55,093 bases of DNA from a virus (lineage: Duplodnaviria > Caudoviricetes): IMG/VR virus record IMGVR_UViG_3300045993_000169, positions 1 through 55,093 of that record; one strand, 5' to 3'. The notes beneath the pieces were generated by a model. The model did no database searches and was not told the DNA's origin. It saw only the letters and a program-made list of their open reading frames with translations. Of the stretch, positions 324 through 51,202 are shown in pieces. The translations under genes and the position numbers were made by a program. Positions within the stretch are counted from its first letter, which is position 1, and every line of letters begins with the position of its first letter.

Positions 324-3056
324 TTACCCTCCTTCACTTAGTGATGTCTTCAATGTAGTAACAGACACACCCAAAGCAGAAGCAATCTCTGCCTGTGTTG
401 CACCATTCTTTGCCATTGCCCTAGCCCTTGACTGATTAGCTGTAGTCATTAGAACCTTAGCCCTTGGTGTAGCCAACTGCTTGATCTGATCTAGATCAGC
501 ATTGTCAAGGATCTTATCCAACCTATCACGACTAATAGCACCAGCCTGTATAGCAGCCCATTCACTATCTGTTAGTACTATCTTAGGCTTCTTAGCGCCT
601 GTCCTAGTACGGGCAGTCTCAAGGGCCATGTACTTCATCTTCTTCTTCTCAGAGTTCTCCATGTCCTTGTTAGAGTCTATCAAGGCTTGGATCTTGGCCC
701 CTGCTATGACCTGGGCCTGTCTTTCAAGGGGGCTGTTTCTTTGGGCGAGGATCAGTTTGGCATTGAGGGAGGCTACTTCAGTAGCATAGGCGGTCTTAGC
801 AGACTTGTTTACTTTGGTAGGGGGGGTATTAATCATCTCTAACCTAGCCATGTTGGCAAGGCCCTTCATCTTGTTAGAGTGATCAGCATAGACCCTCTCT
901 ATAGGGGTGCCTTCATGATTAGGCCCTGACAATAGGGTACGTGCATCAGTAGTCTCAACTAATGCCTTTGATTTCTGGGTGGGGTACTTAACCTTCTCTG
1001 TTACCACACCTGTTCTCTTGTTAGTGGTAGTCCTAACATAAGACTCGCCTGTTGGCACAAAGATTAAAGCACCAGTCTTGCGATCTATAGGACCGCCATC
1101 TTTTGCTGATTGGAGCTTGTATTTAGGAACATCTACCCTATGCCTAGCCCTAGAGATCAGGGTTGCAGCACCTGCATTAGCCTTGCCCTGATACTTAGTT
1201 TTGAGTTGAGCAATCCCATTGTCTACAGCAGACTGTTTGTAGTTGAGGTTATGCTTCTCAGCATCGATGACCACCATTGAATGCCGAACTGCTCGAGCAA
1301 GCTCGGTTGGCGTTGCGCCCATGATAGTCATGTCTGTAATGAGGTTAGAAACAACACCCATTTGAACGCCCTTTGTATGGACGCTCATAGGCACCATGCC
1401 TTCATAAGCAGGATACTTGTCTTTAGGGTTGAAGTTCTTCAGTCCTGCCAATGCTGGTGCAGTCTTGACACTACGACTGTTGTTTGGGATGACAAGAACT
1501 GTGTCACCATCGAAGTCTGCCCCAGAAAGGCGCTCTGCTACCTTCGAGTTGATACCAATCGCATCTGATGCAGCACCTAGAAGCTTCTTTGCATCAGGCT
1601 GCCTGTTATTGACAATCAGTTCTGGGATCTCGAAGATACCACCATGAGGAAAGCGAATTAGAGCAACTCGTTCTCCATCATTGAACTTGGGGGCATAAAC
1701 TTCGTTATCCTTCATCTTGTTTACAGGGAGAATAACATGTGTTCCCTGTCTTGGCATGGCTGCTGCTTTAAGATGTACAGCCGATGAGTCTGCTGAGTCT
1801 GCATAAGACTTAAGCAACTTGACACGAACAGCAGCATTCGTCAAGGATGATATTTCATCAAGATCAAGCGTCTTTTTCTCGAAAGTTTTGGCTAGCTGTG
1901 CCTTAGCAAACTCGGTGTTCTGTTTAGAGAGCATCTGAGAGGACAAGCTTTTTGACCATTTCTCCCATTGACCTTCATCATTGACAATGTTCATCGCAGA
2001 GCGAACGGTGTGGGGGATTTCTGCACCGTTTTCATCAAGCTTCTTAAGCTGACGAACAACAGCGCCAAATGGATTTGCCTCGTCCATCTTTCCTGTTTTT
2101 TTGTCGATCTTGATTGGCTTCATGGCATCATGCTTATCGCCAGTATCACTCTTGTTCGTGTTGAACATGAGATCTACACCTTTAGGCAGGTCATCTTTGA
2201 ACATGGCCATACCTTTAAGGTAGTGCGTACCGTCAACAGCGATACGAACCTGAGCATAGTTCTTTCCGCCTAAAGAAAGATCGTCTACATTACGACGAAC
2301 ATAGACAACACCATCAGCATCAGAGCCACCTTGTTCTGCATATCGGATCTTAACCCGACTTGATGAAACTGATATTGGAGGCTCAATTCCTGACCAAGAA
2401 AGGCCGTTGTCCTCAGTGAACTCCATAAGCGGCTTGATCTTGCCGATGTCTTTCGCAATGTCGGCATACGTAGTTCCCGGAACAGCAAGACAAGTAATCG
2501 TCGTCTTGTTTGTGGTCCCAAGCTGATCTACCTGAACCTTTGTGCGGTAGTATCCCTTTTCCTGTAGGACAGCAACGGCTTTGTCCAACTTATCTCGACT
2601 AACACCAAGAATATGGTGTTCAACGCCAGCACCAATATCGACTACACCTAAAGCATCAACTTTGTCTTTCAACATGTTCGCTGTGGACATGAGTTGATCA
2701 GCCTTGAGCTTTGTAGAAGGATCACGAAGAGCACGAACCGAAGATTCGTTAATACCCATCTGTATACCAATGGCCATGTTGCTCATACCACTGTCATGCA
2801 GTTTGTTAGCCATAGAGATATCCGCTTGCTTCTGAGCATTCTTGTAAATCGACTTCTTTGCCTGAAGCTCAGCCCTTGACATATCCATGCCTTTAGCAAT
2901 CTGAGTATCTGTTAGCCCTTGCTTGTGCATTCCCTCAACGTAGTCAAGAAAGCTCTTGTTGCGCTGAGTCTCTGTATCACCACTACCCCAAGGATAACGA
3001 CCAGACTTGTGGAGAGTGCCGATGTGGGAAAGGTAGTTCTCTTCAGAAATTATCAC
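324..3056 (-). CDS. putative single-chain two-barrel (DPBB) DNA-dependent RNA polymerase, YonO/cellular-RdRP-like, with HTH domains
   Basis: GADFDGD (ADFDGD at nt 1503-1520) preceded by LIRFPH; DG..QVR..LKG motif; HSMVVIDAEKH resembles RdRP HS.AVDFPK; HTH-like segments at both termini. Confidence 0.8.
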   Translation of the reverse strand: MIISEENYLSHIGTLHKSGRYPWGSGDTETQRNKSFLDYVEGMHKQGLTDTQIAKGMDMSRAELQAKKSIYKNAQKQADISMANKLHDSGMSNMAIGIQMGINESSVRALRDPSTKLKADQLMSTANMLKDKVDALGVVDIGAGVEHHILGVSRDKLDKAVAVLQEKGYYRTKVQVDQLGTTNKTTITCLAVPGTTYADIAKDIGKIKPLMEFTEDNGLSWSGIEPPISVSSSRVKIRYAEQGGSDADGVVYVRRNVDDLSLGGKNYAQVRIAVDGTHYLKGMAMFKDDLPKGVDLMFNTNKSDTGDKHDAMKPIKIDKKTGKMDEANPFGAVVRQLKKLDENGAEIPHTVRSAMNIVNDEGQWEKWSKSLSSQMLSKQNTEFAKAQLAKTFEKKTLDLDEISSLTNAAVRVKLLKSYADSADSSAVHLKAAAMPRQGTHVILPVNKMKDNEVYAPKFNDGERVALIRFPHGGIFEIPELIVNNRQPDAKKLLGAASDAIGINSKVAERLSGADFDGDTVLVIPNNSRSVKTAPALAGLKNFNPKDKYPAYEGMVPMSVHTKGVQMGVVSNLITDMTIMGATPTELARAVRHSMVVIDAEKHNLNYKQSAVDNGIAQLKTKYQGKANAGAATLISRARHRVDVPKYKLQSAKDGGPIDRKTGALIFVPTGESYVRTTTNKRTGVVTEKVKYPTQKSKALVETTDARTLLSGPNHEGTPIERVYADHSNKMKGLANMARLEMINTPPTKVNKSAKTAYATEVASLNAKLILAQRNSPLERQAQVIAGAKIQALIDSNKDMENSEKKKMKYMALETARTRTGAKKPKIVLTDSEWAAIQAGAISRDRLDKILDNADLDQIKQLATPRAKVLMTTANQSRARAMAKNGATQAEIASALGVSVTTLKTSLSEGG

Positions 3057-14446: not shown

Positions 14447-14597
14447 CAGTACTCCTCAATGGAGGAGCCAACGGCGGGTTCAACGATCCGGGACACATCT
14501 GTGATCCGAGATAGCTGTGCTGAACCAGCATATGATCATCCCGAAGGTCTTTGATGTGATGACAATATGGACAACGACCTTGCTCCAACTCACTCAT
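14439..14597 (-). CDS. small zinc-finger protein (52 aa, not in ORF track)
   Basis: MSELEQGRCPYCHH..H..CPGS fills the gap between coupled genes. Confidence 0.65.
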   Translation of the reverse strand: MSELEQGRCPYCHHIKDLRDDHMLVQHSYLGSQMCPGSLNPPLAPPLRSTDE

Positions 14598-15078
14598 CAG
14601 TACGACCTCCACGAGAAGGAACGTCGTCCATGTCTGCGTACTTCAGCTCGAGAGCATCCTCTTCGATGGTCACGAAGATTGACTGGAGATATGCCTTGAT
14701 CCCAGTCTTTCCGTTGACAGCCCACTCGTAGGGACGAACGATCATGTCGACCATTTTGATGTCAGCCCAGTCGAGAAGCTCGATCTCATCCTCACCCAGA
14801 TGGTTTCGACCTCGAGATGTGATCATGACAATCCTCGGAGGACGACCCTTGAAGTTGACGGACACCTGCAGATATGCTTGCTCGATGTCGCCTTCCTCAC
14901 GAGCCTTGAGCCACTTGACATTCCATCCGTCCTTAGCCATCGCAGTAGCGACGTCCTCATCCAGAAGAACAGCGAAGTTCCGATCACCCTCTCGGTTGTA
15001 CTGGCCTTCCTTACCAGCGAAGTTGCGGAAGATGATGCGGACATCCTCCATGATGACGTTTTTGTCGTCGTAAGCCAT
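14590..15078 (-). CDS. single-stranded DNA-binding protein (phage type)
   Basis: IIFRNFAG..GIKAYL, acidic C-terminus, lies near the polymerase. Confidence 0.7.
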   Translation of the reverse strand: MAYDDKNVIMEDVRIIFRNFAGKEGQYNREGDRNFAVLLDEDVATAMAKDGWNVKWLKAREEGDIEQAYLQVSVNFKGRPPRIVMITSRGRNHLGEDEIELLDWADIKMVDMIVRPYEWAVNGKTGIKAYLQSIFVTIEEDALELKYADMDDVPSRGGRTDE

Positions 15079-15507
15079 TTAGTTCTCCTTGATTGTGACT
15101 TCGAGGGAGTCAAGATATGCCCTGACTCCAGTTTTACCAGTATCAGTGTGCCAATGACAGGGATAGACGACGAGATTGACGTTGTCGAATTCGACAGTAT
15201 CGAGCATTCCGATCTCCTCTTTGGTCATGAGGATATGACCATCGTCAGTGACCTTGACGATCGTGGATGGCATCGGTCCGTTGAAGTCAATAGCAACTCG
15301 AATGAAGGGCTTCTTCTCGCCATAGAGTTCTCTGGATGCAATCCATCGAATCGTCCAGCCTTGCTTAACTAATGAATCAGCCATCTCCTTGTCGAGGAGA
15401 ATCGAGAAGCTAGGCAAGATCTCAAACTCTCCTGCGAAATCTCTGAAGATAAGCTTTGCGTTTTTCAGGATGAGGTTTTCGATGATCGTGTCGTCGGTCG
15501 TGTCCAT
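15079..15507 (-). CDS. SSB paralog lacking the acidic tail
   Basis: LIFRDFAG..GKTGVRAYL aligns with the adjacent SSB. Confidence 0.65.
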   Translation of the reverse strand: MDTTDDTIIENLILKNAKLIFRDFAGEFEILPSFSILLDKEMADSLVKQGWTIRWIASRELYGEKKPFIRVAIDFNGPMPSTIVKVTDDGHILMTKEEIGMLDTVEFDNVNLVVYPCHWHTDTGKTGVRAYLDSLEVTIKEN

Positions 15508-15509
15508 AA

Positions 15510-15899
15510 TTAGTCCTCCGTATAAATTTCGACCGGGATTCCGGCCTTTTCTGCTTTCCGGATACAATCTGCTGTGCCAATAGAGCCTTCGTGCAGGAAC
15601 GCCAGACAAATATCCGCACCAGAGTCAACCATTCTCTGATTACGAATAGGTCCAGCAGCCTTATGTTGCTTCTTCCAGTTCGCTGTGTAAGGCTCAATGG
15701 TGAAACCAAATGCCTCTGCACATATCTCAGCGAAAGTGTCAGCACCTTTTGCTCTGCCAACAATTACCACAGTGTCCTTCGGTCGACCAGCCTCTTCCCA
15801 TGTCGAGAATATGGCATGTCTAACGATTGCCTTGTCTCGCCAGTCGCGGGCTCCAGTGATCAGGATTCGATAGGTCACTGGAGCCTTCTTCTTGGCCAT
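15510..15899 (-). CDS. SLOG-superfamily protein (DUF2493-like)
   Basis: ILITGARDW, GxAxGAD, AAGPIRNxxM, GT motifs. Confidence 0.8.
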   Translation of the reverse strand: MAKKKAPVTYRILITGARDWRDKAIVRHAIFSTWEEAGRPKDTVVIVGRAKGADTFAEICAEAFGFTIEPYTANWKKQHKAAGPIRNQRMVDSGADICLAFLHEGSIGTADCIRKAEKAGIPVEIYTED

Positions 15900-15901: not shown

Positions 15902-16132
15902 TTACAGCGAGCCGTCAGCCAGATTGGCGTACAACTCGTTCAGCGCATCGATATAACCATCCAACTCGGCGTCAATCCGTGCCTGATACGAGATGTTGGC
16001 CTTGATAGCGACGACAAACAGAACGACGATGACAGTAACGCCAGCGCCCATAATGAGTCCCTCTTCGTGTCGAAGGGCCCATGACTTGAATCGACTGTAC
16101 CTTGACTCCTCCATCACGATACCCTCCATCAC
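15902..16132 (-). CDS. single-TM membrane protein
   Basis: central hydrophobic helix. Confidence 0.6.
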   Translation of the reverse strand: MMEGIVMEESRYSRFKSWALRHEEGLIMGAGVTVIVVLFVVAIKANISYQARIDAELDGYIDALNELYANLADGSL

Positions 16133-16407
16133 ATCAACCTCTGAGAACGGACAACCTCGACGAGATTGTCATGAGTCCGCTGGGCCTCTTCAGACATGCG
16201 CATGAGCGTGGTCTTCAGAGTCTTCACGGTGTTCTTGATGTCGTTGAAAGCGATCCGCAACTCCGGGTCGAGTCGAGAACTGGACGTGAACTGCGTGAGG
16301 TAGTCGATAGCCATGCCAGCCTCGAGCTCGAGCTCACGAGTCGAACTCGGCTTCGGAGGAACGACGATCTGGGTTGGGGGAACAGCAGGTGCGTTCTGTT
16401 CAGTCAT
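16129..16407 (-). CDS. hypothetical protein
   Basis: AAGGAG RBS before MTEQN. Confidence 0.65.
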   Translation of the reverse strand: MTEQNAPAVPPTQIVVPPKPSSTRELELEAGMAIDYLTQFTSSSRLDPELRIAFNDIKNTVKTLKTTLMRMSEEAQRTHDNLVEVVRSQRLM

Positions 16408-16681
16408 TTGGAACTCCTTGATATTTGGCGGTGAGTTGGGCGATGCCGTGGTCAACTGCAGACTGCTTGTAGTCGAGATTGTGCTTCTCGGAGCCGAGAA
16501 CAACCTGCGAGTGTCGGATAGCACGAGAAAGCTCTGCCTGCTTGGCACCATTAATCATCATGGCCCCGATAAGATCCGAGATTGCTTTCATCTGATCATG
16601 ATATGCCTCAGTTGAGACAGGAGTCATACCCTCATACGCAGGATATGACAGCAGTGGATCGAAGCCGTTCAAACTTGTCAT
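16400..16681 (-). CDS. stand-alone paralog of an RNA polymerase subdomain
   Basis: GAGGAGG RBS; 51/86 ungapped identities to about aa 538-623 of the 910-aa protein. Confidence 0.8.
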   Translation of the reverse strand: MTSLNGFDPLLSYPAYEGMTPVSTEAYHDQMKAISDLIGAMMINGAKQAELSRAIRHSQVVLGSEKHNLDYKQSAVDHGIAQLTAKYQGVPND

Positions 16682-16691
16682 GCGAACCTCC

Positions 16692-16805
16692 TCAATTGTG
16701 TGGATCACAGTGGCAGTGACAGTGCTCACTACCGCAACGAATTTTTGGGTGAGTTGTTTCCCGACAAAGGCAAACGAGTGGCGTGAGAACTGGTTCATCA
16801 GCCAT
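16692..16805 (-). CDS. Cys/His-rich microprotein (37 aa, not in ORF track)
   Basis: MADEPVLTPLVCLCRETTHPKIRCGSEHCHCHCDPHN; GAGGAGG RBS. Confidence 0.6.
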   Translation of the reverse strand: MADEPVLTPLVCLCRETTHPKIRCGSEHCHCHCDPHN

Positions 16806-17268
16806 TGTCATCCTCCTCGGGGGAGTCGTCAATGAAGACACTGTAGGAGACAAGACCAACAGCCTTCGTCACCGTGTCAAGGATATGCTGAGCCAAGTCG
16901 GGCTTGATGTCGGAGAACGAGATGTTCATGTAGACGTTTTTGTCGGACACCAACGTGGTCGGGTTCCCACTTCCATCCGTATGGCAATGACACCCCTCGC
17001 TTCCACATTCGATTCCGACATGTTCGCTTGCGCAACCACACATTTTTGCTCCTTGGTCTTTTGTGATCTTGTTTGTCAGCTCAGTTAGCCCATACTCCGA
17101 ATATGGTTCCGTTTTGTCATACCACTCAATCGCCGCCGCACGCGTACGAAACCCAAGCTTGTGTGGGTCATTGATCGGAGGGTACTCATCAGCACTTGCG
17201 AAGTACTCCTGCATGATGAATTCCCCAGCCTCGTTCTTACGAAGAATCCACCCGTTGTCGGCACTCAT
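16798..17268 (-). CDS. hypothetical protein with CxC..H..CGSExCHCH motif
   Basis: AAGGAG RBS; motif shared with the downstream microprotein. Confidence 0.65.
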   Translation of the reverse strand: MSADNGWILRKNEAGEFIMQEYFASADEYPPINDPHKLGFRTRAAAIEWYDKTEPYSEYGLTELTNKITKDQGAKMCGCASEHVGIECGSEGCHCHTDGSGNPTTLVSDKNVYMNISFSDIKPDLAQHILDTVTKAVGLVSYSVFIDDSPEEDDNG

Positions 17269-17426: not shown

Positions 17427-20400
17427 TCATTCCACGAACGACTCGTAATCACCAAACTTGTTGATGGTCTTGATGGCTTCTCGGGTGATGTAGTCGAAAT
17501 ATGCCATGTCGATCTGAAGGTTATCCACGCCAAGAGCCTTTACCATCTCAGCTTCAAGCCAGAAATAACCCTTCGTACCTGTTACTGCATACTGCTTTTC
17601 ATCCTTAACCCGCCAGAGAATTCCTCCACCAGACTCAGGTTTCACCGGAACAAAGCGTCCCGTCCTACCAACAAAGTGAAATGCCTCATAGGCCATGGGC
17701 TTCTTGTCCTCGTCGAAGGCGAGATACATTGCACCCTGAGTGACCTGTTTGGTCTCACAGTAGTCGTCAAACGTGAGATCCTGAACGTCGAACAGCGTCT
17801 TGAAGACATAAGGATGCTGGAACTGAGCACCCACGGCTGTCCACATTTTGGTGTGCGGATTCTCCTTCTCATTGATCCGAGCAATATAGACGGCTTCGTT
17901 CACAAGACAAAGCTTGTTGTACGTAGCCTCATGCTCGAAGGTGTAACCATACTCAAGACCAAACAGAGAAACCATCTCGATGATCTCCGGTGTTGCATTG
18001 GGAATCTTGATCGAGTCGGTCTTGATGTGAGCAACCGTGAACCCAAGACTCTGGACGTACTCCTTGAGATCGATCATAAACAGGGCACCACGCTTCGCCA
18101 CAATGTTGTCGACGTTACGAATATCCCTGAACGGGTTGTCGAACTTAGCTGAGGTCAAGCCATAGACAATGTTGATCACAATCTTGAGCGCATACGAAAG
18201 CGCCTTTGCCTGTGTCTCATCCTTCAAATATGGTGCCAGCTTTCCACCGAGCATCTTTCGTGCATCGTTGTACTCGCCATGCTTGATTGCCAACCGAGCA
18301 TTCTTGAGATCGGAGAAGTTTGGCGTGTAATCTCCGAACATGTTAAGCACTTCGATGGTAGTTGGATGCATCGAAGCAATATCCAGCAGGGCAACGTTCT
18401 CGTACATACCCGGTTCAGCGTAAACGTATCCGCCTTCACCAGTTTCCTCACCCTTGTAGGTACTCTTCCCAAGCTCAAACTCATAACCCGGGAACTCTTC
18501 GCTCAGATCCGTGTACTGGAACTGCTTCTGAGGGAACTTGTCATTACCAAATATGATCTTTGCAGTGTGCTTCTGCGTCGTGTCATTCACGGTAAGACCA
18601 CTCAGGTCTGCAAGGATCTGACGAGCGATGAAGTCCTGCTTGCGTGACTCGAAAGTCGCCTCAGTGGCAGTCACGTCGTTGCAGCAGTAGTCAACCACAC
18701 GCTCAACATCTTCATCCTTAACAGGCTCATCCCACGGAATATCCATCTCGATGTGGGGAAGCCCTAACTCGATCTCGTACTTCTTCAGCCCCTGCTTCTT
18801 CGAGGTGAAGTCGTAAATATCCGTGTACGAGAGGTTGTATGCCTCACCAAACATCGCACCGTGATCATTGGCTATGATCTTCTGCGACAGCAGGTAAAGT
18901 TGTTCGTTGTTGTACCCCATGTACCTTCCATACAAGATATGGTTGTCGTATCGGCGGTTGTTGAAGCCCACCAACTTAAAGCCAAACAGAGATTCAACCT
19001 TCTGCGCATCAGGGTTGATCATCCGAACGACGTTGTCGTCCCCCGCATACTTCCAGCACACAACGAAGAGGTTTGGGTAAACCTCAATGTCGAAGAAGAC
19101 GATGCGCTCGTCCGTAGCCTGTGCCAAAAATGGCTGGGCATCATCCTTCCCATGGAACTTCATCTTCTGCACGATCTTGAGAGCCTGCATCGGCTGGTTG
19201 CTGCTGTTGTTCGCGAATGCAACAATCGTAGGACGCATGTCAGTCAGGTCATAAGACAGATCCGAGTCATAGGCGTCATCAAGGATCTTCTGGATGAAGT
19301 CGATTGACGGTTTGGTTCCCGGATGAATCTCCTTTCGCAGATTTCTAGCGATAAGATCTCGAAGACCTTTCTCGCTCTGAATTGTGTTCGATGGGAGCAT
19401 CTTCTTCTTCTCCTTAATTGGCAGCCCACTATTGATAGCGGCTACGGGAACGTTGTTACACTTAGTGAGCTTTCTGCGCAAAGCGCTGTTGCCCGTATAG
19501 ACTTTTACCTCAATACCTGTCGAATATTCAGGCGCGAGTTCTGCGACGTCACCGTCATAGACATAGTGCAGATGCACACCACCCTCACCCTTACTGATCT
19601 CAGCATATGTTGCTGGCCAGTTACTTGCGGCAGCGAGGTTCTGTTCGAGCGACTTCTCCCCATGTTCATTCTTGAGATCAAAGTCGATCACAATATGGTT
19701 CTCAGGGATCTGGACATAGTGCAGTTTTGAGGTGTCAATCTCAGACAACTTCGTTTTGACAGAGGACCACCTTCGTGCTGGTGTCCCATCATCATTTGCA
19801 TACTGAGCCGGATAGTCTCCGTACAAGGTGTCAAATATGGAGACATACTCATCCATCACCAGCGAGAAATTCGTATCGTTCTTTGCTGGCATCTTGAACG
19901 GACGAGCGGTGAACCCAGAGTAGTAACTCCTCAACACGACCCCATCAATATTGGTCCTGTCGTGAAACTCTGAGAAGTAGTTCCGCAACTCTTCACGAAC
20001 TTTGTACTGCGGAAGCATACGCTCAATGCCTGTGTCCCCACAGTATTCTTTGTACAACTGATAGGCTTGCCTGAGCGTCGCTCCATTCTGCTCCTTGAAT
20101 ATGTCGTAGTTCGCCTCAATGAAGTTGAAGAAGATGTCAGTCTGAAGCATCATCTCAAGGGGACGATACGAATTGTAGTAGTTCTTGCCCATCTTGCGAT
20201 AGACATCGAGACAATGTTGCGCGATAGCGCCATGCTCGAATTCGATCTTAGCCATTAACGCATGGTAGTGGTTGGCTGGGATCTTGACACCAGTTGGGTG
20301 GACGTCGATCAGACGCCTGATGATTCCCGACTTAGCATCGGAGATCTTAACTGGCTGGTTGGTACCCATGAATAAGAAAGCATTCACCCGAGCGGTATAG

Positions 20401-21182
20401 CTAGGCTTGTACTTCTCGTTCATGGTCATGTCTTCATGCGCGATGATTGAGTTAAGCTTGGTGTTGTCCTCAATCTTCGATAGATCCCCATCGTGCTGCA
20501 GTGCCACGAGTGGGTTGTCCTTGAACACCTCTGTTGCAAAAGCTCCATTCGAAGAACCAAGCGCCTTTGCTTCAAACGATGTTGTGTAACCAACAAACAA
20601 GTCCTGCAGAATGTTTAGAACGGTTGACTTACCTGTACCAGCAGGACCATACAGGACGATGAACTTCTGGATCTTCTTTGAGTCACCAGAAACCACAGCC
20701 CCAATAGCCCATTCAATCTTAGCCCTCTCCTCAACAGAATATAGAGTTCCGATGAGTTCGTCCCATGCGCTATAGTCACCAGCCGCTAGAGGATATGGAA
20801 GGCGCCGACTCACGTAGTCGGACTTCTTGGTTTCAACATTTGCAAACGTCAGATTCTGATCTAACTGATGACTATTGTCACTGACATTCTGCATAAATTT
20901 TCGAAAGGTGCTCCAAGTATTGGTACCGAAAGAGCGAAGGTACTTCACATTACACGCGGGTCCACCTGAGGTCTCTTTCTCAGCAAACTGGCGGAGGTCT
21001 TCGTCTACAAGACGTTGCACATCATACTCGTCTGTAGACCAAAGCTTCCTTTCATCGTCCCAGATTGCATAGAACGATCGTCCTCGAACCATAAGATCCT
21101 TCGAACGTCCAACAGTGAAGTCTGGATATATCTCCAAGCCTCCGCCCTTAGTCTCTCTCGTGCTGATTTGATAGAAGTCCAT
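17427..21182 (-). CDS. fused SF3/D5-like helicase - AEP primase - family B DNA polymerase with 3'-5' exonuclease
   Basis: GPAGTGKS; IDFD and HLHY; DIE, FN..YD, Y..ND; DIASMHP, KxxxNxxYG, KTDS. Confidence 0.85.
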   Translation of the reverse strand: MDFYQISTRETKGGGLEIYPDFTVGRSKDLMVRGRSFYAIWDDERKLWSTDEYDVQRLVDEDLRQFAEKETSGGPACNVKYLRSFGTNTWSTFRKFMQNVSDNSHQLDQNLTFANVETKKSDYVSRRLPYPLAAGDYSAWDELIGTLYSVEERAKIEWAIGAVVSGDSKKIQKFIVLYGPAGTGKSTVLNILQDLFVGYTTSFEAKALGSSNGAFATEVFKDNPLVALQHDGDLSKIEDNTKLNSIIAHEDMTMNEKYKPSYTARVNAFLFMGTNQPVKISDAKSGIIRRLIDVHPTGVKIPANHYHALMAKIEFEHGAIAQHCLDVYRKMGKNYYNSYRPLEMMLQTDIFFNFIEANYDIFKEQNGATLRQAYQLYKEYCGDTGIERMLPQYKVREELRNYFSEFHDRTNIDGVVLRSYYSGFTARPFKMPAKNDTNFSLVMDEYVSIFDTLYGDYPAQYANDDGTPARRWSSVKTKLSEIDTSKLHYVQIPENHIVIDFDLKNEHGEKSLEQNLAAASNWPATYAEISKGEGGVHLHYVYDGDVAELAPEYSTGIEVKVYTGNSALRRKLTKCNNVPVAAINSGLPIKEKKKMLPSNTIQSEKGLRDLIARNLRKEIHPGTKPSIDFIQKILDDAYDSDLSYDLTDMRPTIVAFANNSSNQPMQALKIVQKMKFHGKDDAQPFLAQATDERIVFFDIEVYPNLFVVCWKYAGDDNVVRMINPDAQKVESLFGFKLVGFNNRRYDNHILYGRYMGYNNEQLYLLSQKIIANDHGAMFGEAYNLSYTDIYDFTSKKQGLKKYEIELGLPHIEMDIPWDEPVKDEDVERVVDYCCNDVTATEATFESRKQDFIARQILADLSGLTVNDTTQKHTAKIIFGNDKFPQKQFQYTDLSEEFPGYEFELGKSTYKGEETGEGGYVYAEPGMYENVALLDIASMHPTTIEVLNMFGDYTPNFSDLKNARLAIKHGEYNDARKMLGGKLAPYLKDETQAKALSYALKIVINIVYGLTSAKFDNPFRDIRNVDNIVAKRGALFMIDLKEYVQSLGFTVAHIKTDSIKIPNATPEIIEMVSLFGLEYGYTFEHEATYNKLCLVNEAVYIARINEKENPHTKMWTAVGAQFQHPYVFKTLFDVQDLTFDDYCETKQVTQGAMYLAFDEDKKPMAYEAFHFVGRTGRFVPVKPESGGGILWRVKDEKQYAVTGTKGYFWLEAEMVKALGVDNLQIDMAYFDYITREAIKTINKFGDYESFVE

Positions 21183-22670: not shown

Positions 22671-23579
22671 CTAGATCTTGTCGAATATGGTGCCGTCGAC
22701 ATTGAAGTCGAGGAGGATGGAACCCTCACGGCCATTTACAAAAGCACGAGCACGTTCGCTATCAGCGTTGTACATGCCGAAGTCAACGAAGTTGTCGCCA
22801 ATGCCATCCTTGGTCATACGCCATCCAACGACAGCGCCTTCCTTGGACCGATCAATACCTAGAGAGTCGTAAACCTCATTGAGGAATACGTGACCGCGAG
22901 CACGGAGCCTGTCGTTCGCCCAGTCCTGCTGGCACTGGAGGAACATCCGGTTGTACTCGGGATTACGCTGCCAAGATGAAGAGTACTCGTCGAAGAACCG
23001 AGCATAAACAGACGCTCCGTTCGGACCAACTCTCGAAACCATCTTGGTCTTGGGCTCGCCCTTGTCCGTTTCCTCAAGAATCTCTCGAGTCTCCGAACCG
23101 TAGCGAAGCTCACGCTCCTTGTCTTCACCAACTTCGGTAAGGACACGTGCCCTATATTCAGCGAAGCCCTTTTCGACCGCAGCGTAAGCAGCAGTCAGTC
23201 CGATGTTTCGCTTCGTCAGGATGATGTGCGATCCTGTGAGGCAGGTAATCGAGATGACACCAATCGTAACGGCTGGCCAGTACAGCTTTGCGATTGCCAT
23301 CGCTCCACGAACGTAGATCACGGCCTTGTCCTGCTGCCAGTCCCGATCTGAGTACTTCGGGTTTCCGGTTTCATGCAGGTCATAGGCCTTGCAAAGCTTG
23401 TCGTTGGTCTCATCGATCACGTGGTCAAGATTGAGCGTTGACCGAGATGCGAGAACAACGGTTGCCACTACGCCAACAACACCAGTACCGAAGAGAATAA
23501 CCGGTGAGTGCTTCTGTCCAAGAAGAAACTGACGAGCGACTTTGGACGTTACAACGTCTTTGATTGAACTGAGGTTCAT
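22671..23579 (-). CDS. conserved membrane-associated protein (DUF6353-like)
   Basis: HSP.IL TM, AAY, F..Y, LN.VY..LG..GW; paralog of 29548..30333. Confidence 0.7.
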   Translation of the reverse strand: MNLSSIKDVVTSKVARQFLLGQKHSPVILFGTGVVGVVATVVLASRSTLNLDHVIDETNDKLCKAYDLHETGNPKYSDRDWQQDKAVIYVRGAMAIAKLYWPAVTIGVISITCLTGSHIILTKRNIGLTAAYAAVEKGFAEYRARVLTEVGEDKERELRYGSETREILEETDKGEPKTKMVSRVGPNGASVYARFFDEYSSSWQRNPEYNRMFLQCQQDWANDRLRARGHVFLNEVYDSLGIDRSKEGAVVGWRMTKDGIGDNFVDFGMYNADSERARAFVNGREGSILLDFNVDGTIFDKI

Positions 23580-23589: not shown

Positions 23590-23721
23590 TTAAAGTTTAT
23601 TTTGCATTCTGAGCCGCATGGTTATGGCAACGACTTGCGCCTTTGTCATCTTGTCAACCTTTTCGGCCCATTGCTTGCTGGGATATGCCTTCTTGAGCAA
23701 CTCGCGCTCTGGGTTGGCCAT
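23590..23721 (-). CDS. small hypothetical protein (43 aa, not in ORF track)
   Basis: MANPERELLKKAYPSKQWAEKVDKM..; TGATG coupling. Confidence 0.65.
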   Translation of the reverse strand: MANPERELLKKAYPSKQWAEKVDKMTKAQVVAITMRLRMQNKL

Positions 23722-24383
23722 CAGTCAAGAAGTTCCGGCTTTGGAAGGTCAAGGAGATAGCCGTTGCTTACACGACTGACTCCAGCACCACGAATATCCA
23801 CCCAGCCATACTTCTCATCGGTGAAGTTCCCCGAGACACCAACAAGATCGTACAGATCAGCAACTGTTGCTGATTCGTACTTTGAAACCAGATCGAAAAG
23901 CCTGTCGACGACCTCCTCAGCCTCAACACGTGTTGGAAGAACGATCTCGTCGAAGTTATGAGCAGCCCGTGAACGCTGACTCATGTTTCGAGGCTGATCG
24001 TCGCGGCGGTCACGATCATTCCGATTCGAGTTGTGACCCGAATATCGGTTGTAGCTGACGAAACCGTTCGAACTACTGTGACGAGACCGCGAAGAACTTC
24101 GATTCATCGGACGGTTGTCACCATAGATCCGTCGGTCGATTCCCTCACGAAGGGCATCTGCGAAGAGATCTCTTGCCTGTGGAATAAGAACCTCAAACCA
24201 CACATACACCACGGCGTTCTTAGCGTTCTCACCAATGAAAACATCCTTGAACTTTTTTCCCAGCGGCTTTTTTCTGATGATCGCTGTACCAGTGGTAACC
24301 CGCTCGACCTTCTTGGGTTCGGGCTTCGCCACAGGTTCTGGCTTTTGCTTATTGCTGTTGCTGGGGAATTCGCTTCCTGCCAT
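23721..24383 (-). CDS. conserved hypothetical protein
   Basis: GAGGA RBS; C-terminal VADLYDLVG..YGW..LPKP domain. Confidence 0.75.
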   Translation of the reverse strand: MAGSEFPSNSNKQKPEPVAKPEPKKVERVTTGTAIIRKKPLGKKFKDVFIGENAKNAVVYVWFEVLIPQARDLFADALREGIDRRIYGDNRPMNRSSSRSRHSSSNGFVSYNRYSGHNSNRNDRDRRDDQPRNMSQRSRAAHNFDEIVLPTRVEAEEVVDRLFDLVSKYESATVADLYDLVGVSGNFTDEKYGWVDIRGAGVSRVSNGYLLDLPKPELLD

Positions 24384-24408
24384 AATTTTCGTCCTCAATT
24401 CAAAAGAG

Positions 24409-26985: not shown

Positions 26986-27239
26986 GATAAGTCGACCTCG
27001 TGCTGAACGAACCACAAAGACTCGGGATCAAACTCGACAGATGTCCCCTTCGGCATTGAGGACTTGGTCGTCCCAAAGAAATTGAACACATGCCCCTTTG
27101 GAATATGGTGCTGCTTCTCCACCTGCCATTCGACCTCTGCCGTTGTGGGACTCGCAGCGATACCGACCTGCACGAGAAAGAACACGTCCGTACCTTCATC
27201 CGACTGCTGGATGAATATGCCCCTCGGGATGGAACTCAT
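26982..27239 (-). CDS. hypothetical protein
   Basis: ATGA overlap. Confidence 0.6.
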   Translation of the reverse strand: MSSIPRGIFIQQSDEGTDVFFLVQVGIAASPTTAEVEWQVEKQHHIPKGHVFNFFGTTKSSMPKGTSVEFDPESLWFVQHEVDLS

Positions 27240-27805
27240 GAGTGCACCCCTTCAACCGGAACTGGCTTCGGGAGAACCAACATGTAACCAGAACGGACAC
27301 GACTGACACCAGAGCCAGCGAGGTTTGCCCAGCCCCACTTGGTGTCCTCATATGTTCCGTTGAGGCCTACAGCGTCATAGAGATCGCCAACAGAAGCCAC
27401 GTCATACTTCACGATCATCTGGAAGAGCCGTTCCAGAACTTCTTCAGCATCAGCCTCCGTAGCCAGAACGATGTCGAGAACCTGCTTCTTCACTGGTGTG
27501 ACCGTCTGAACCTTGCCCGGCTCTGCCTTGTCGTTAGCGCGCAACTTCTCCAGTTCGTCGTAGGCAGTCTCGCCGATACCCGACTGCCCAGTCAGGACCA
27601 TGAACGGGAAGTTTTCGGGGACGTGCAGATCGCAGAACTTAATCGGACTGCCATCAACCTTGATAAACGTGATGAGGACGCGTCCGAAGATGTCCTTGAG
27701 CGGCTTGTTCGTGACGCAGTACTTGCTGCCACTCAGGTAGAAGCGATCCTTCTCCTGAATCTCAGCAGCAGTCTTCTTGATGGAGTACTTCGCGGGCTTT
27801 GTCAT
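27236..27805 (-). CDS. chimeric protein whose C-terminal domain is paralogous to 23721..24383
   Basis: IVL.T..EAEEV..RLF..KY..V.DLYD.VG..GW..GVSRV..GY.L.LPKP shared. Confidence 0.7.
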   Translation of the reverse strand: MTKPAKYSIKKTAAEIQEKDRFYLSGSKYCVTNKPLKDIFGRVLITFIKVDGSPIKFCDLHVPENFPFMVLTGQSGIGETAYDELEKLRANDKAEPGKVQTVTPVKKQVLDIVLATEADAEEVLERLFQMIVKYDVASVGDLYDAVGLNGTYEDTKWGWANLAGSGVSRVRSGYMLVLPKPVPVEGVHS

Positions 27806-29547: not shown

Positions 29548-30333
29548 TCAGTGAATCCGGTGGTAATCCCTTACCGGAGCAACTCGGAACTCAATTGCAA
29601 TGCAAGGACGCTGGTCATCAGACAGAGTTCCAGTGAACTTGCACTCTAACGGCTTCTCACTTGTCCAACCGACTTCATCAGAATATGCCGTCGTGGCAAG
29701 TCCGATGTTGTCGTAGAAGTCGCCGAGAGATGCGTAGCCATCGCTCAGCATTGTGTAATTGATGTCGTTCTGAGCCTTCTTGAGCGTCTCCATGTCACTC
29801 GTGAAATATCGCCCAGAGAAAGAGTCGAAACAGAGGACTTCGCCGTTTCCTGTGATGATGACCTCACGATCACCGACAGGATTCCGACGAACCTGATCTT
29901 GCATGACTTCATCGTGGATCTTCTGTTCCTTGCCCTGACCGATTTTCTCGACGACCTTTTCCTTGTATTCGGTGAAGGCCTTCTCGGAGATGGAGTATGC
30001 GGCAGCCACCGCAGCAGCCCGACGTGTTCCGATACGGTTGGCGCCGATGATGCACACTACGGTCGCGACAACCGTACCAATCGCTGGGATGTACTCCTTC
30101 CATACGAGGACGATCTTCTCCTTGGGCTCCAGAATATGGGGCGGGTTGCCATTTGCACTCTTGCTGATTCGATACTGCTCATCTGCGATGATCTCGACAG
30201 CCTTGATAGTTGCCGTCCCCGTAAGGAAAGCCACACCAAGCGTTCCTGTGACAGCGACAGCAGTAAGAATCGCAGGCGAGTGGTCAATCGCCAGTTTCTC
30301 AACTCGTTTTGCTACCTCAACAAACGTAGTCAT
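29548..30333 (-). CDS. conserved membrane-associated protein (DUF6353-like)
   Basis: HSPAILT TM, AAAY, SGRYF, GW; paralog of 22671..23579. Confidence 0.7.
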   Translation of the reverse strand: MTTFVEVAKRVEKLAIDHSPAILTAVAVTGTLGVAFLTGTATIKAVEIIADEQYRISKSANGNPPHILEPKEKIVLVWKEYIPAIGTVVATVVCIIGANRIGTRRAAAVAAAYSISEKAFTEYKEKVVEKIGQGKEQKIHDEVMQDQVRRNPVGDREVIITGNGEVLCFDSFSGRYFTSDMETLKKAQNDINYTMLSDGYASLGDFYDNIGLATTAYSDEVGWTSEKPLECKFTGTLSDDQRPCIAIEFRVAPVRDYHRIH

Positions 30334-39075: not shown

Positions 39076-39896
39076 TACAAGCCTCCATACCTTCTGTTAT
39101 ACGAAATGTTGAAAGGTATCGCAACGCCAGTGGCGTAGACCCGAAGATAATTATCACCGGGAGTGAGTGTGATCCAACTTGATTGCGGTGAGATGCCATA
39201 CAGAACTGAGCTCTGAGTACCAGAACGGGTACGCCATGCTCCTTTTATTCCTGGAACTGTATTGATAATCAATTGATCACCAGCAATGAGTGGTGCCGAG
39301 AAATCAAGTTGCTTAAGCAAACCGCCCGACGATCGTTGGTAGATCGTGAACTCTGAGATTGCCCGATCAGCATTCAGAATAAAGACGAGACCCGAATCAA
39401 CCGATCCTTCGTAGTCGATAAGGGTCTCGACCTCTGTTGCGACAGTCCCACTTGACAATAGGATCTGAGTGTTGTCGATGAAATCTGGATCGAAGCATAT
39501 GATCGAGATATCAACGGCAGGCTCCTTCGTGAAGAACGGAGTCTCAAACGTCTCCACTCTCCCCCGAATAACCACCGAAGAATTGTTTGAGTCACGAAAG
39601 GTGAGTATGACCTCACTCTTTGGCATGAAAAACGTATAGAGCCTTTGCCGGAGATCCTGTACTGAGTCCACAATATAGTCGGGCTCAAGGCCTAACCGAA
39701 ACTTGAGGTTCCGAGTCTCCCTCCGGCTGGAATGGTACTGTTCTCCATCCAGCCGGGCGAACGATGATGACACTAAGGTTGCCTTTACCGGGTCTAACCC
39801 CTCGATCTGTTCGAGGATAAGACCCGCAGACACGTCGTCGAGCGGAAGGATAAGCAGATCGCCCTGAGTTGTTCGAACTTCGACTTGGGTGAGCAT
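39075..39896 (-). CDS. distal tail protein (Dit)
   Basis: directly after tape measure; IEGLDP..L.PGDN. Confidence 0.8.
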   Translation of the reverse strand: MLTQVEVRTTQGDLLILPLDDVSAGLILEQIEGLDPVKATLVSSSFARLDGEQYHSSRRETRNLKFRLGLEPDYIVDSVQDLRQRLYTFFMPKSEVILTFRDSNNSSVVIRGRVETFETPFFTKEPAVDISIICFDPDFIDNTQILLSSGTVATEVETLIDYEGSVDSGLVFILNADRAISEFTIYQRSSGGLLKQLDFSAPLIAGDQLIINTVPGIKGAWRTRSGTQSSVLYGISPQSSWITLTPGDNYLRVYATGVAIPFNISYNRRYGGL

Positions 39897-44458: not shown

Positions 44459-44835
44459 GCTGATGTCACCGCCATCCATACCTTGTTTGCGATTGAGTCA
44501 AATACGGGTCTCATTGCGGGGTTAATGTAGTCCCGTCCTTGAACGTAACCACCAGTTCCTGTGCCATACCCATACTGAAGCATGATAGCCACTGGGAATC
44601 CGCCCTCAATGTTGGTGTTAGTCCAAGATATGGTGTAGATGCCACCGCCGCCACTTACCTGAGAGCCCCAAGACGATGAGGCTAACCGACTGTCAACTGG
44701 GGTTGCTGAGGCCAATGCATTGACCCCTTCTTGTGCGGCTGACTTTAGCACGCTAAGGATGTTAACCTTAGACACTTTAGTAAGAAAGGCTTCCGTCTTG
44801 TTAAAGGAGCCTGAGTGAACAAATGTAATGCCCAT
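44455..44835 (-). CDS. tail completion / HK97 gp10-like protein
   Basis: ATPVDS..SW; YGYGT..G..YI.PA. Confidence 0.7.
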   Translation of the reverse strand: MGITFVHSGSFNKTEAFLTKVSKVNILSVLKSAAQEGVNALASATPVDSRLASSSWGSQVSGGGGIYTISWTNTNIEGGFPVAIMLQYGYGTGTGGYVQGRDYINPAMRPVFDSIANKVWMAVTSA

Positions 44836-45850: not shown

Positions 45851-46576
45851 TTATAGAGAGCTGAGAGTATAGCTTGTTTGATCGATCATAACGGCAGTAT
45901 CCCATGTAATCTGGAAAGTCGTGGAATCGAGCATCTGAATTGCTTCGTCTGGTCCTGTCGCAGTGAAAGACCCGTCACCGTTGTCAATAACTCTAAATAG
46001 TGAGTTGACCTCAAATATCTCGAGTACTTCTTCGGGTGTTGGCATTTGAGGCGGTCGTCCCTCGGAGCCATATAGCACATCCTCAAAAGCTGAAACAGTC
46101 CAAGCATATGCTTTTGAGACATCGATAACTAAGTGCGAACTAGCCGAAGCACCATTAATAGGCCTAGCCCTAGTTGTGAAATCCCAACTAAATGCTGATG
46201 CATCTGACTGATCGTACGTGGGTGTATCTGGAGACAGAAGAATGTTGTACACGAGGTGGATCTTGTACGACCTGCTTGTCATCACACTATAACTCAACCC
46301 GAAAGTCTTTTGCCGTCTTGGCACAAGCACGGTTTCATAGAACGACTCAGGATATGTGAAAGCCTCAATCGTACCGGCAAACTCGCCAGCCCTACTGCGA
46401 TTGTCAACCTTCACCCCATCGAGATAGCGAGGTGTTCTATCAGACTCAGTCGGAGCCTCCTGCACAGAAACTAGACCATTCCAAGCCTCACCGGCACCGT
46501 TTGGTGGGTAGAACACGCCACGATCCACGCCATACTCGTAGATTCGATTGTCGTTGCTTTCCCAGTTCAGTCTCAT
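45851..46576 (-). CDS. major tail protein paralog 3
   Basis: YEYGVDRGV..WNGL..EAFTYP..YKIHLVYN. Confidence 0.75.
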   Translation of the reverse strand: MRLNWESNDNRIYEYGVDRGVFYPPNGAGEAWNGLVSVQEAPTESDRTPRYLDGVKVDNRSRAGEFAGTIEAFTYPESFYETVLVPRRQKTFGLSYSVMTSRSYKIHLVYNILLSPDTPTYDQSDASAFSWDFTTRARPINGASASSHLVIDVSKAYAWTVSAFEDVLYGSEGRPPQMPTPEEVLEIFEVNSLFRVIDNGDGSFTATGPDEAIQMLDSTTFQITWDTAVMIDQTSYTLSSL

Positions 46577-46598
46577 GTCAAGACATCCTTAGTTCGTC

Positions 46599-47231
46599 TC
46601 AAGCGAACAGAGTTATGAGTTCGTCTGGACTTGGAAGTCGAGGGTCATTGAACTCTGACCCATAGAGAATATCCTCCAGAGCGATAAGCGTTGCACCAAG
46701 AGTCATTCGTGAGTCAATGACAAGATGTGCTGTTGGCTTATAGCCAGTAATCGATGGCGATAAAGTCGTTATGTCCCAACTCAACGTCGATGGATCTGGT
46801 GAATCGCTGGTTGTGGTGTGCTGTCGGTCCGAAGGCGCTGCCAATGCGTTATAGACAATATGAATCTTGTACGCATGATTCGACATGTCTACGTCGTTAC
46901 CTATCTTCGTTCGATAGGAAAAGTTGAATGACTTTCTAGGCTGTTGGGTAACGAACAGACCGTTTTGGACAGAAACTACACCATCGCAGACAGCAAACTC
47001 TGGCGGATTGTAAAAGGCTTCGAGGTTTGCGGTATACTCTTCGGCTGCAGCAATGTTAAGAAACTTGACACCATCGATGTAGTAGGGCTTTGCTTCTCCT
47101 CCAGACGAAGACTCTGAGATCGAGATCAATCCAGCCCAAGCAACTCCACTGTCAGCGATATAGAGAACCCCGCGGTCAACCCCAGTTTCATAGAATCGCT
47201 CACCTGCCACGCCCCATTCTAGTTTTGCCAC
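46599..47231 (-). CDS. major tail protein paralog 2
   Basis: YETGVDRGV..YKIHIVYN..LEDILYG. Confidence 0.75.
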   Translation of the reverse strand: MAKLEWGVAGERFYETGVDRGVLYIADSGVAWAGLISISESSSGGEAKPYYIDGVKFLNIAAAEEYTANLEAFYNPPEFAVCDGVVSVQNGLFVTQQPRKSFNFSYRTKIGNDVDMSNHAYKIHIVYNALAAPSDRQHTTTSDSPDPSTLSWDITTLSPSITGYKPTAHLVIDSRMTLGATLIALEDILYGSEFNDPRLPSPDELITLFA

Positions 47232-47243
47232 GTCAAGGTCCTC

Positions 47244-51186: not shown

Positions 51187-51202
51187 TTTGACTGTCTCCT
51201 TC

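Follow-up and report, generated by a model that had tools for sequence, protein, structure and literature searches.

Why does a phage that encodes a large putative RNA polymerase (RNAP) also carry a separate small gene corresponding to a single internal segment of that enzyme? The question is raised by an open reading frame (ORF) of the virus record IMGVR_UViG_3300045993_000169, which was analysed over its whole length of 55,093 nt (hereafter, the window; a complete IMG/VR record of 49.4% G+C with an estimated completeness of 93%). The small ORF appears to be a genuine, selectively maintained, free-standing paralogue of a module of the window's own RNAP, which we read as the bridge helix and trigger loop of an enzyme with two double-psi barrels. 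The original prediction, made from this sequence, recognised the small ORF as a copy of an RNAP segment and noted neither its bridge-helix/trigger-loop identity nor the membrane-anchored and fused forms of the same module described below. The coordinates of all features are collected in Table 1.

In a BLASTP comparison of the small protein with the 910-aa product of the large gene, 52 of the 92 aligned residues are identical (57%) and 63 are positive, without a gap and with an E-value of 4e-32; residues 40-131 of the small protein are aligned with residues 536-627 of the large one. The ungapped alignment reported earlier thus stands, whereas the count given for it (51 identities in 86 positions) has to be corrected. 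When the small ORF is compared with the window by tblastn, the segment encoding the resident module is recovered with an E-value of 6.7e-31 and no third copy is detected, the next-best match having an E-value of 0.20. The motifs YPAYEGM, RHS, EKHNL, YKQSAVD, GIAQL and KYQG, listed in the original prediction, are all found in the small ORF, and so is the reported change of IDAEK to LGSEK, in which D598 of the large protein is replaced by G102 in the small protein. The match of the small ORF to the phrog_4291 profile (E 4.5e-25) covers only positions 537-633 of 909, and the DFDGD motif, the barrels and the triad of aspartates are missing. The small protein is thus a domain-level homologue of phrog_4291 that cannot polymerise because both the barrels and the catalytic aspartates are absent.

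The 93-aa ORF with a strong ribosome-binding site that had been predicted is real, and a Shine-Dalgarno sequence precedes its ATG at a suitable place (Table 1); the frame, however, stays open further upstream, yielding a long form of 132 aa. The 39-codon extension has a codon-usage score of 0.048 in this frame compared with -0.97 and -0.69 in the other two, a value that is reached by 0.7% of off-frame windows and lies only at the 6th percentile of true coding windows; the codon usage of the small gene is gene-like (score 0.33). Either start codon, or both, may be in use. The N-terminal extension (residues 1-39) is variable and partly hydrophobic; its 19-residue Kyte-Doolittle hydropathy peaks at 1.41 (residues 20-38), which is below the usual cut-off of about 1.6.

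The large gene belongs to a family for which polymerase activity is a well-founded prediction. Its product matches phrog_4291 ('RNA-dependent RNA polymerase') end to end with an E-value of 0, and its closest relatives, in the Streptomyces phages Bilo and Scap1, share about 58% of the amino acids. The alignment of 71 full-length homologues contains an invariant DFDGD motif (D514, F515, D516, G517 and D518; nt 1503-1517 on the minus strand), which is the DbDGD metal-binding loop of the second double-psi barrel, along with the invariant R468 and P470. An AlphaFold2 model built on this alignment (pLDDT 84.4, pTM 0.73) matches the QDE-1 chains in Foldseek with E-values from 1.2e-9 to 8.7e-9 and a probability of 1.00; further matches are the phage P32 gp64 RNA polymerase (8f72, 1.2e-7), P74 gp62 (8f5m, 1.4e-7) and plant RDR2 (3.4e-7), with bacterial beta-prime weaker. 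The TM-scores of the model against solved polymerases are low (0.26-0.31) because of a different arrangement of the domains. The match to the Pfam RNA-dependent RNA polymerase (RdRP) family PF05183 reaches 14.5 bits (E 0.015), under the gathering score of 23.8, which reflects a protein too divergent for a single-sequence hidden Markov model. The RNAP label of the original prediction accordingly holds as a predicted activity, given the phrog_4291 match and the QDE-1-like model, but falls below the Pfam cut-off. Koert et al. described the family as a putative RNA polymerase, with an HHpred probability of 95.7% for RdRP when the family alignment was used, and as a supercluster signature shared by phages of Arthrobacter, Gordonia, Streptomyces, Lactococcus and Faecalibacterium (bioRxiv 10.1101/842583), and Ruprich-Robert and Thuriaux grouped the phage 1706 protein with YonO-like two-barrel enzymes (PMC2919709). 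The match to phrog_4291, the identity of up to 58% to Bilo and Scap1, the position at the genome end and the helix-turn-helix (HTH) domains at both ends of the protein place the window's large gene in this supercluster family. As far as their available text goes, both papers describe the full-length gene only (10.1101/842583, PMC2919709), and no biochemical study of the phage 1706/actinophage-type polymerase family was found in the literature search.

Two observations concern the large protein and its family in their own right. Residues 49-83 of the small protein also align to residues 708-743 of the large one (E 0.010), and secondary partial matches to the module profile occur in several full-length homologues (at about residues 170-200 in relatives); these internal echoes may be due to chance or to an old internal repeat. 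Full-length polymerase genes are also present inside chromosomal contigs of 148-427 kb from Lachnospiraceae, Butyrivibrio and other Clostridia (L243, L248, L250, L251, L253 and L256), so that some carriers of the family are probably prophages. The known isolates of these phages are mostly described as lytic.

The position and architecture of the duplicated segment point to its identity within the polymerase. In RDR2, the chain leaving the second double-psi beta-barrel (DPBB2) first crosses the secondary channel as a loop and continues into the bridge helix and the trigger loop; the trigger-loop lysine, K923, corresponds to K1119 of QDE-1 and K1615 of phi14:2 (PMC8713982). In QDE-1, the trigger-loop subdomain comprises residues 1102-1136, and hydrophobic packing against the bridge helix keeps the loop rigid; in the incoming nucleoside triphosphate (NTP), the base is touched by V1115, the 3'-OH by D1116 and the gamma-phosphate by K1119, and a Pro-gate loop, R962-x-P964, lies 45 residues before D1007 (PMC9508822). 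The phage enzyme has a matching R468-F-P470, 46 residues before the first aspartate of its DFDGD loop. As had been noted, the duplicated segment follows this loop, which ends 18 residues ahead of it. The segment consists of a non-helical strap (residues 536-558), a 20-residue helix (559-578), a short turn containing G580, which is nearly invariant, and another helix (583-602) ending in V-I-D598-A-E-K601-H602. Invariant across the 71 RNAPs are M566, G567, N571, L572, D575, M576, A589, D598, K601, H602, I615 and L618. The module therefore occupies the same place after the DbDGD loop as the bridge helix and trigger loop of Neurospora QDE-1, Arabidopsis/maize RDR2 and gp66 of the crAss-like phage phi14:2, with the same order of linker, helices and lysine-bearing tip, and its I597-D598-x-x-K601 matches V1115-D1116-x-x-K1119 of QDE-1 (PMC9508822). 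Unlike in the QDE-1-type enzymes, the module is here also made as a separate product of 93-132 aa without barrels. In the small protein, the first helix carries the changes G567 to K, N571 to D and D575 to A relative to the RNAP, and the second ends in the trigger-loop-like V-L-G102-S-E-K105.

Sequence searches do not connect the module with QDE-1: phmmer finds nothing, and the A2 profile retrieves only HTH proteins and the catalytic loop of the P23-45 polymerase, with E-values of 0.19-0.28, without reaching QDE-1. With the model of the small protein, Foldseek returns nothing from the PDB at E of 0.001 or below, and a wide VIA-align search yields generic helical bundles only (best Z 6.9). In the ESM Atlas, the small protein matches, by structure, only large viral clusters of HTH-bearing proteins.

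The small ORF and the resident module differ in the manner of two coding sequences. Their identity by codon position is 0.65/0.77/0.36, the last of these values being close to random, and the nonsynonymous divergence (dN) is 0.36 whereas the synonymous divergence (dS) is saturated (maximum-likelihood estimate 4.5). The frame is open over 92 codons at a nucleotide identity of 59% (71% over the best 119 nt). Because third positions are near random while first and second positions are conserved and dS is saturated, the two sequences appear to have been under long purifying selection, as opposed to being a recent duplicate or a decaying fragment. The earlier view that the copy is intact, diverged and hence probably selected is borne out by the codon-position pattern, by dN, by the same domain limits in other phages and by a supported clade of free-standing forms; dN/dS is not near 1. 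A role as a donor cassette for gene conversion of the RNAP gene is rejected on account of the low nucleotide identity. The fold of the small protein, predicted with an alignment of its free-standing relatives, has a pLDDT of 88-97 over residues 41-130, with helices at residues 63-82, 87-106, 110-116 and 119-127 that are in register with the helices of the RNAP model once the numbering is shifted by 496 residues; the N-terminal extension is modelled as a low-confidence helix (pLDDT 55-66). The small protein is thus predicted to fold alone into a compact helical bundle.

The window is not the only source of such genes. A HMMER search of 1.84 billion representatives yielded 673 proteins at E of 1e-3 or below, mostly RNAPs of about 900 aa, the four best matches, however, being all short (132, 128, 96 and 100 aa). 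A protein was considered free-standing if its ORF is complete, begins about 0-90 residues ahead of the strap motif L..F.P...Y, ends at most about 20 residues after K-Y-(Q) and contains no barrel sequence; the small ORF, with an N-flank of 38 (or 0) and a C-flank of 2, is of this kind. When the short matches were sorted by their flanks, their start residue and the lack of DFDGD, 16 candidates remained, of which P0054 and P0075 were dropped as they group tightly with full-length genes and are probably fragments. The free-standing members are P0002-5, 18, 21-23, 36, 71-73 and 149, to which a profile search adds P0154-157, 159, 160, 163, 170 and 171, for a total of about 23 clusters (at 90% identity) in metagenomes. 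The ten members that were looked up come from contigs of 1.2-47.6 kb, and with the later members the range extends to 1.2-61 kb, so that most of the free copies are not fragments at contig ends. The contigs with P0018, P0154, P0157, P0023 and P0171 are 17.5, 29.5, 41, 47.6 and 58.8 kb long, respectively. P0017, P0118, P0150 and P0151, considered as split RNAP genes starting at the module, look like truncated gene calls.

Some of these proteins have additional parts. Six clusters (P0018, 21, 22, 154, 156 and 157) possess an N-terminal transmembrane (TM) helix; among the 18 free copies that were aligned, three have an N-terminal 19-residue hydropathy of 1.8-2.3, and the same TM-plus-linker sequence recurs in three further clusters. 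Behind the TM helix come a conserved basic stretch and an acidic linker, an arrangement in which the module would be cytoplasmic and tethered to the membrane. In P0042, the module is fused to a 290-aa domain of no known family, and in P0172 (200 aa; six member sequences, on contigs of up to 50 kb), a 63-aa module is fused to a DUF3310/PF11753 domain, which is labelled 'nucleotide kinase' in PHROGs. A 63-aa module consisting of the helices only, without the strap, is encoded in the viral record G026 (L239, 4699-5564, minus strand) and overlaps the start of a DUF3310/PF11753 gene by 4 nt; the related proteins are P0170-P0172. The adjacency and fusion of the module and DUF3310 are possibly a functional link or possibly a deletion accident.

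Among phage genomes, the free module is rare and patchily distributed, occurring in phages of 31%, about 40% and 49% G+C. The best 80 IMG/VR matches to alignment A1 are all located in frames of 620-1,043 aa, the short ones being cut by contig ends, and among 237 loci with flanks of up to 10 kb, the small ORF of the window is the only genuine short one; none of these loci has an RNAP lacking its own module. P0004 and P0021 were not found in IMG/VR. Two apparent free copies, in L192 (a 1,237-nt contig) and at 10007-10432 of L235, are frameshifted full-length genes, the rest of which tblastn finds in other frames; frameshifts located exactly around the module mimic free copies and call for caution with automatic family counts. 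When 42 other long viral records were searched whole, all were found to encode the RNAP and two contained a second, free-standing copy, so that the distribution in relatives, named originally as a check, is mixed: the gene is present in a few of them and absent from most. The first of these two records, G023, is 53.7 kb long with direct terminal repeats, has 31% G+C in the sampled regions and encodes a small protein of 105-123 aa, which is also recorded as a hypothetical protein of an Anaerocolumna metagenome-assembled genome; the second, G026, is 61.4 kb long with 39-40% G+C in the sampled regions and has the 63-aa form. A full RNAP is present in all three wholly readable records with a free module (the window, G023 and G026), and the neighbours of the small gene are unrelated among the three. 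Three tblastn searches against 50,697 phage records gave matches in 250, 249 and 250 records at 256, 250 and 251 places, and no second copy outside the large gene was seen among the matches listed (60, 15 and 15 rows); the places exceed the records by 6, 1 and 1, one excess being a full gene in two pieces. In 185,579 species genomes, no free copies were found with a two-pattern A1 scan that would miss divergent forms, and 20 of 20 loci are full-length RNAPs (742-992 aa, one cut by a contig end).

The conservation of the free modules differs from that of the embedded ones in a manner that bears on function. In a comparison of 128 RNAP-embedded and 15 free modules on one profile (with P0042, P0054 and P0075 left out), M566, G567, N571, D575, G580, I597, A599 and Q623 are at least 90% conserved in the RNAPs and only 27-53% in the free copies; for M566, G567, N571 and D575, the values are 99-100% and 27-47%, respectively. 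Retained in both sets are L539, F542, P544, Y548, G553, L572, I573, M576, A581, A589, H592-V595, L604, S609, I615, L618 and Y622, so that the free copies keep the hydrophobic core, the N-terminal strap L..F.P...Y....GM and the RAxRHSMV stretch. The lysine K601 is conserved at 99% in the RNAPs and 100% in the free forms, and is invariant in all 18 aligned free copies, whereas D598 drops from 100% to 80% (G in the window, N in two). R588, R591, Q608, D612 and K621 are equally or better conserved in the free copies, with R588, K601 and K621 at 100%. The relaxed positions are located on the first helix, at the hinge glycine and at the tip and, by analogy, would face the template, the NTP and the catalytic centre. 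This pattern of relaxed and kept residues indicates that the free proteins have been released from the constraint related to catalysis, and not from the constraint on the fold and on at least one polar face.

The phylogeny of the modules bears on the origin of the small gene. In a maximum-likelihood (ML) tree of 74 rows and 89 columns, the window's free copy forms a clade with P0002, P0004 and P0005, all of them free-standing (ultrafast bootstrap 95, SH-aLRT 97), which is joined weakly to the window's own RNAP (43/88); the free copy of G023 clusters with the RNAP of the same genome in a 4-row clade (87/89). The label 'free' requires 6 changes on the ML tree, and in an approximately unbiased test, a topology with all 15 free forms in one clade is not rejected (p 0.374); in an earlier quick tree of 145 rows, 10 of the 16 free forms together with P0042 fell on one side of a branch with an SH-aLRT of 92. 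Given its placement among the free forms, the window's gene descends from an ancestor that was already free-standing. Perhaps the phages of this supergroup have budded off the module several times.

Turning to the function, the original prediction offered two possibilities, a decoy for a host sensor or inhibitor of the phage RNAP and a dominant-negative switch that shuts off early transcription. The reading that we tentatively prefer, giving it slightly less than an even chance, is close to the second: by analogy with paralogous fragments that act on their parents, the small protein could be an RNAP-directed mimic, a microprotein-like or dominant-negative fragment that modulates or poisons a phage RNAP. 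It would offer the docking surfaces of the resident module without the catalytic face and thereby compete for the partner of that module, most plausibly the polymerase core during chain synthesis or folding. Since the resident module is covalently attached to the enzyme and, in QDE-1, packed rigidly in place, competition is plausible mainly on the nascent or folding chain. The outcome would be an RNAP that is damped or switched off. Aimed at the phage's own enzyme, the mimic would act as a switch and, aimed at the enzyme of a co-infecting relative, as a means of exclusion; the TM-anchored forms would hold the partner at the membrane by sequestration. The conservation pattern leans somewhat towards a mimic directed at the RNAP and away from a decoy of the active-centre face, and the rarity of the gene suits a co-infecting relative as the target. 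In a broader formulation, which we regard as possible but doubtful, module mimics that sabotage or gate two-barrel RNAPs would make up a new class with soluble, membrane-anchored and fused members, serving either as a weapon against co-infecting relatives or as a timed off-switch.

Several points weigh against this interpretation. The assignment of RNAP residues 536-627 to the bridge helix and trigger loop is made by topology, spacing and the [VI]-D-x-x-K motif, and not by residue-level superposition. Displacement of the module from a folded enzyme is improbable, so that action on nascent or unfolded chains would be needed, which is speculative. The small gene lies upstream of the RNAP gene on the same strand, and a poison made before its target would need extra regulation. 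The gene is dispensable in this phage group, being absent from 40 of the 42 other viral records and from essentially all of the 250 isolate records. The residues conserved in the free copies may have been kept only for folding and not for docking. Finally, the window's free copy is 57% identical to its own RNAP compared with up to 62% to foreign ones, whereas in G023 this order is reversed (49% to the own RNAP, 43-44% to foreign ones); as the order differs between the two genomes, nothing points to co-evolution of the small protein and its cognate polymerase.

The proposal that the small protein is a mimic of this kind has several partial parallels. Protein fragments can inhibit their parent proteins in vivo (PMC9245647). 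The small protein resembles the microProteins and dominant-negative fragments in being a small single-domain paralogue encoded along with a larger parent, with the catalytic face relaxed and the fold and possible docking surfaces kept. The known microProteins, however, mimic dimerisation domains and not an internal active-centre module, and inhibition by the small protein is a proposal. TFS4 is a paralogue of an archaeal cleavage factor that has turned into an RNAP inhibitor (PMC5715097). The likeness, which for the small ORF is one of concept, is to a helical paralogue of a transcription component that has lost its catalytic residues and acts on the active centre of the polymerase; TFS4, however, is not homologous to the module; it stems from an external factor instead of the polymerase chain itself, and its target is a multisubunit RNAP. 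The secondary-channel factors of the Gre/DksA type are helical and similar in concept but likewise not homologous to the module. Membrane-anchored anti-sigma factors work by sequestration, and the six TM-bearing clusters with their basic stretch and linker are reminiscent of them; there is, however, no homology, and the N-terminal extension in the window is only borderline hydrophobic (1.41). The literature search retrieved no description of a free-standing bridge-helix/trigger-loop module or of a regulator of the 1706/actinophage-type polymerase. Thus, the domain homology and paralogous fragments acting on their parents elsewhere are known; the gene for a free-standing bridge-helix/trigger-loop module seems to be new.

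Next in order is the unlikely, although not negligible, alternative that the module has been exapted for a job unrelated to the RNAP, either as a binder of nucleotides, pyrophosphate or nucleic acids via its basic-polar face (R588, R591, H592, K601 and K621) or as an adaptor. The complete conservation of R588, K601 and K621 in the free forms is consistent with such a role, as is the better conservation of R591, Q608 and D612 than in the RNAPs. The fusions in P0172 and P0042 and the adjacent module and DUF3310 genes of G026 point in the same direction, and the N-terminal additions vary. The approximately 6 'free' changes on the ML tree would imply repeated recruitment. Nevertheless, half of an active centre cannot by itself form a ligand site, the RNAP accompanies the module in 3 of 3 whole genomes, the neighbours are not conserved across these genomes and so give no hint of a partner, and the fusions may be deletion accidents.

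As for the decoy, the free module would soak up a host factor aimed at the RNAP module, for instance a defence sensor or an inhibitor of protein or small-molecule nature, and the anchored forms would park this factor at the membrane; we consider this quite unlikely. An accessory and patchy gene (2 of 42 records, essentially none of 250 isolates) is what is usual for counter-defence genes, the purifying selection with retention of the fold agrees with the decoy role, and the membrane-anchored variants fit sequestration. However, the accessible active-centre and secondary-channel face is precisely where the free copies have relaxed (M566, G567, N571, D575, G580, I597 and A599). The decoy is weakened by this drift because it should keep what the attacker sees, and this is the face that can be reached in the assembled enzyme; recognition of a decoy by its overall shape is possible. 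We know of no defence system that senses the 1706/actinophage-type polymerase. PADLOC, which covers defence genes and not anti-defence genes, and NCBIfam contain no family at E of 0.01 or below for the small ORF, its neighbours (four searched in PADLOC, three in NCBIfam), the RNAP or P0042, and the lack of PADLOC matches for the small protein and its surroundings counts against the decoy with the same proviso on the scope of this collection.

That the small gene is a functionless relic, a drifting partial duplicate or a captured fragment of an RNAP gene, is highly improbable. The abundance of paralogues in the window, the rarity of the gene among relatives and the loss of an invariant catalytic-site residue in the window copy (D598 to G) would agree with decay. 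Against it stand the 92-codon open frame with coding-type substitutions at 59% nucleotide identity and gene-like codon usage, the consensus Shine-Dalgarno sequence with translational coupling, the homologues with the same limits in phages of such different G+C content, and the place of the window's copy in a free-standing clade supported at 95/97. An exchangeable part that replaces or complements the resident module in trans and alters catalysis (substrate choice, fidelity or template), as might be suggested by the lysine invariant in 18 of 18 aligned free copies, by the aspartate kept in 80% and by the D-to-G change in the window that removes the counterpart of the QDE-1 residue contacting the 3'-OH of the incoming NTP (PMC9508822), has hardly any chance, considering that the free copies have not retained the bridge-helix residues conserved at 99-100% in 128 enzymes, a loss difficult to square with catalysis, and that all 237 loci checked carry their own module.

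Very little is understood of how the single-chain two-barrel phage polymerases (YonO, crAss gp66, P23-45 gp64 and the 1706/actinophage type) transcribe, and a naturally occurring, free-standing, selected module would be a ready-made probe of how this module docks and moves. The small protein is a candidate natural inhibitor or modulator and could be an example of regulation by an enzyme's own fragment, and the anchored and fused variants present the module in the course of being reused. If it acts on foreign polymerases, a new mechanism of competition between phages would be at hand; if it is functionless, it is still a clean case for the persistence time of a polymerase fragment.

Table 1. 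Features of the window discussed in the text, listed from the large gene and the small ORF outwards
Feature	Position (nt)	Strand	Remarks
Large gene, 910 aa, two-barrel (QDE-1/RdRP-like, phage 1706/YonO-type) putative RNA polymerase	324-3056	-	HTH at both ends; near the record end
Resident module, RNAP residues 536-627	1176-1451	-	source segment matched by the small ORF
Small ORF, long form, 132 aa	16400-16798	-	ATG 16796-16798 overlaps the upstream stop (TGATG)
Small ORF, short form, 93 aa	16400-16681	-	exactly the bridge-helix/trigger-loop-like domain
Shine-Dalgarno sequence GAGGAGG	16687-16693	-	read from sequence; 5 nt ahead of the internal ATG (16679-16681)
First long helix of the small protein, residues 63-82	16553-16612	-	counterpart of RNAP helix 559-578 (bridge-helix-like)
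Second long helix of the small protein, residues 87-106	16481-16540	-	trigger-loop-like end
Upstream neighbour, 156-aa Cys/His-rich protein	16798-17268	-	stop overlaps the long-form ATG of the small ORF
Downstream neighbour, 91-aa protein	16129-16404	-	ATG 8 nt inside the end of the small ORF (ATGACTGA), AAGGAG ahead
76-aa protein with a hydrophobic, probably membrane-spanning stretch	15902-16132	-	two genes downstream of the small ORF
YspA/SLOG-type protein	15510-15899	-	PF10686 YAcAr, E 3e-11; three genes downstream of the small ORF
Two tandem single-stranded DNA (ssDNA)-binding genes	14590-15609	-	PF24083; helicase and nuclease genes next in order
Primase/DUF5906-family A DNA polymerase fusion, 1,251 aa (replicase)	17427-21182	-	phrog_4210
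Two phrog_2152 genes	22671-23579 and 29548-30333	-	
Two phrog_4079 genes	23721-24398 and 27236-27805	-	
Tape measure	39896-44479	-	minor tail protein genes next in order
Three tandem tail-tube (major-tail-protein) paralogues	45851-48470	-	phrog_2645
Protease-major-head (capsid) fusion	49114-51393	-	phrog_3270 and phrog_7080
Portal	51203-52504	-	

The recognisable genes of the window are on the minus strand throughout, with a long run of small genes without assigned function between the tail genes and the primase-DNA polymerase gene. The window is unusually rich in paralogues (three tail-tube genes and two each of the ssDNA-binding, phrog_2152 and phrog_4079 genes), and duplication seems to be common in this phage lineage. 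The small ORF sits within the block of replication genes, in a tightly packed row, and is translationally coupled to both of its neighbours. Neither of its immediate neighbours belongs to a known family, and a pattern scan of IMG/VR revealed no relative of the upstream one. The SLOG family, to which the protein three genes downstream is related, is associated with nucleotide-derived ligands.

The phage collection contains no relatives of the window at the nucleotide level. No RNA run is listed among those holding the sequence. Four DNA runs yield only contig pieces of low depth; pieces identical to the window are present in X2, X3 and X4, with informative variants absent. In run X1, a 151-nt contig (depth 2, less than 90% like the window) joins positions 15795-15899 to 16696-16733 with 3 letters in between; the 796 nt that are skipped correspond to the module domain and the two small genes downstream of it (91 and 76 aa). 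This contig, too short and divergent to be relied upon, gives a weak hint of a relative that lacks the three-gene stretch, which would then possibly be an inserted cassette.

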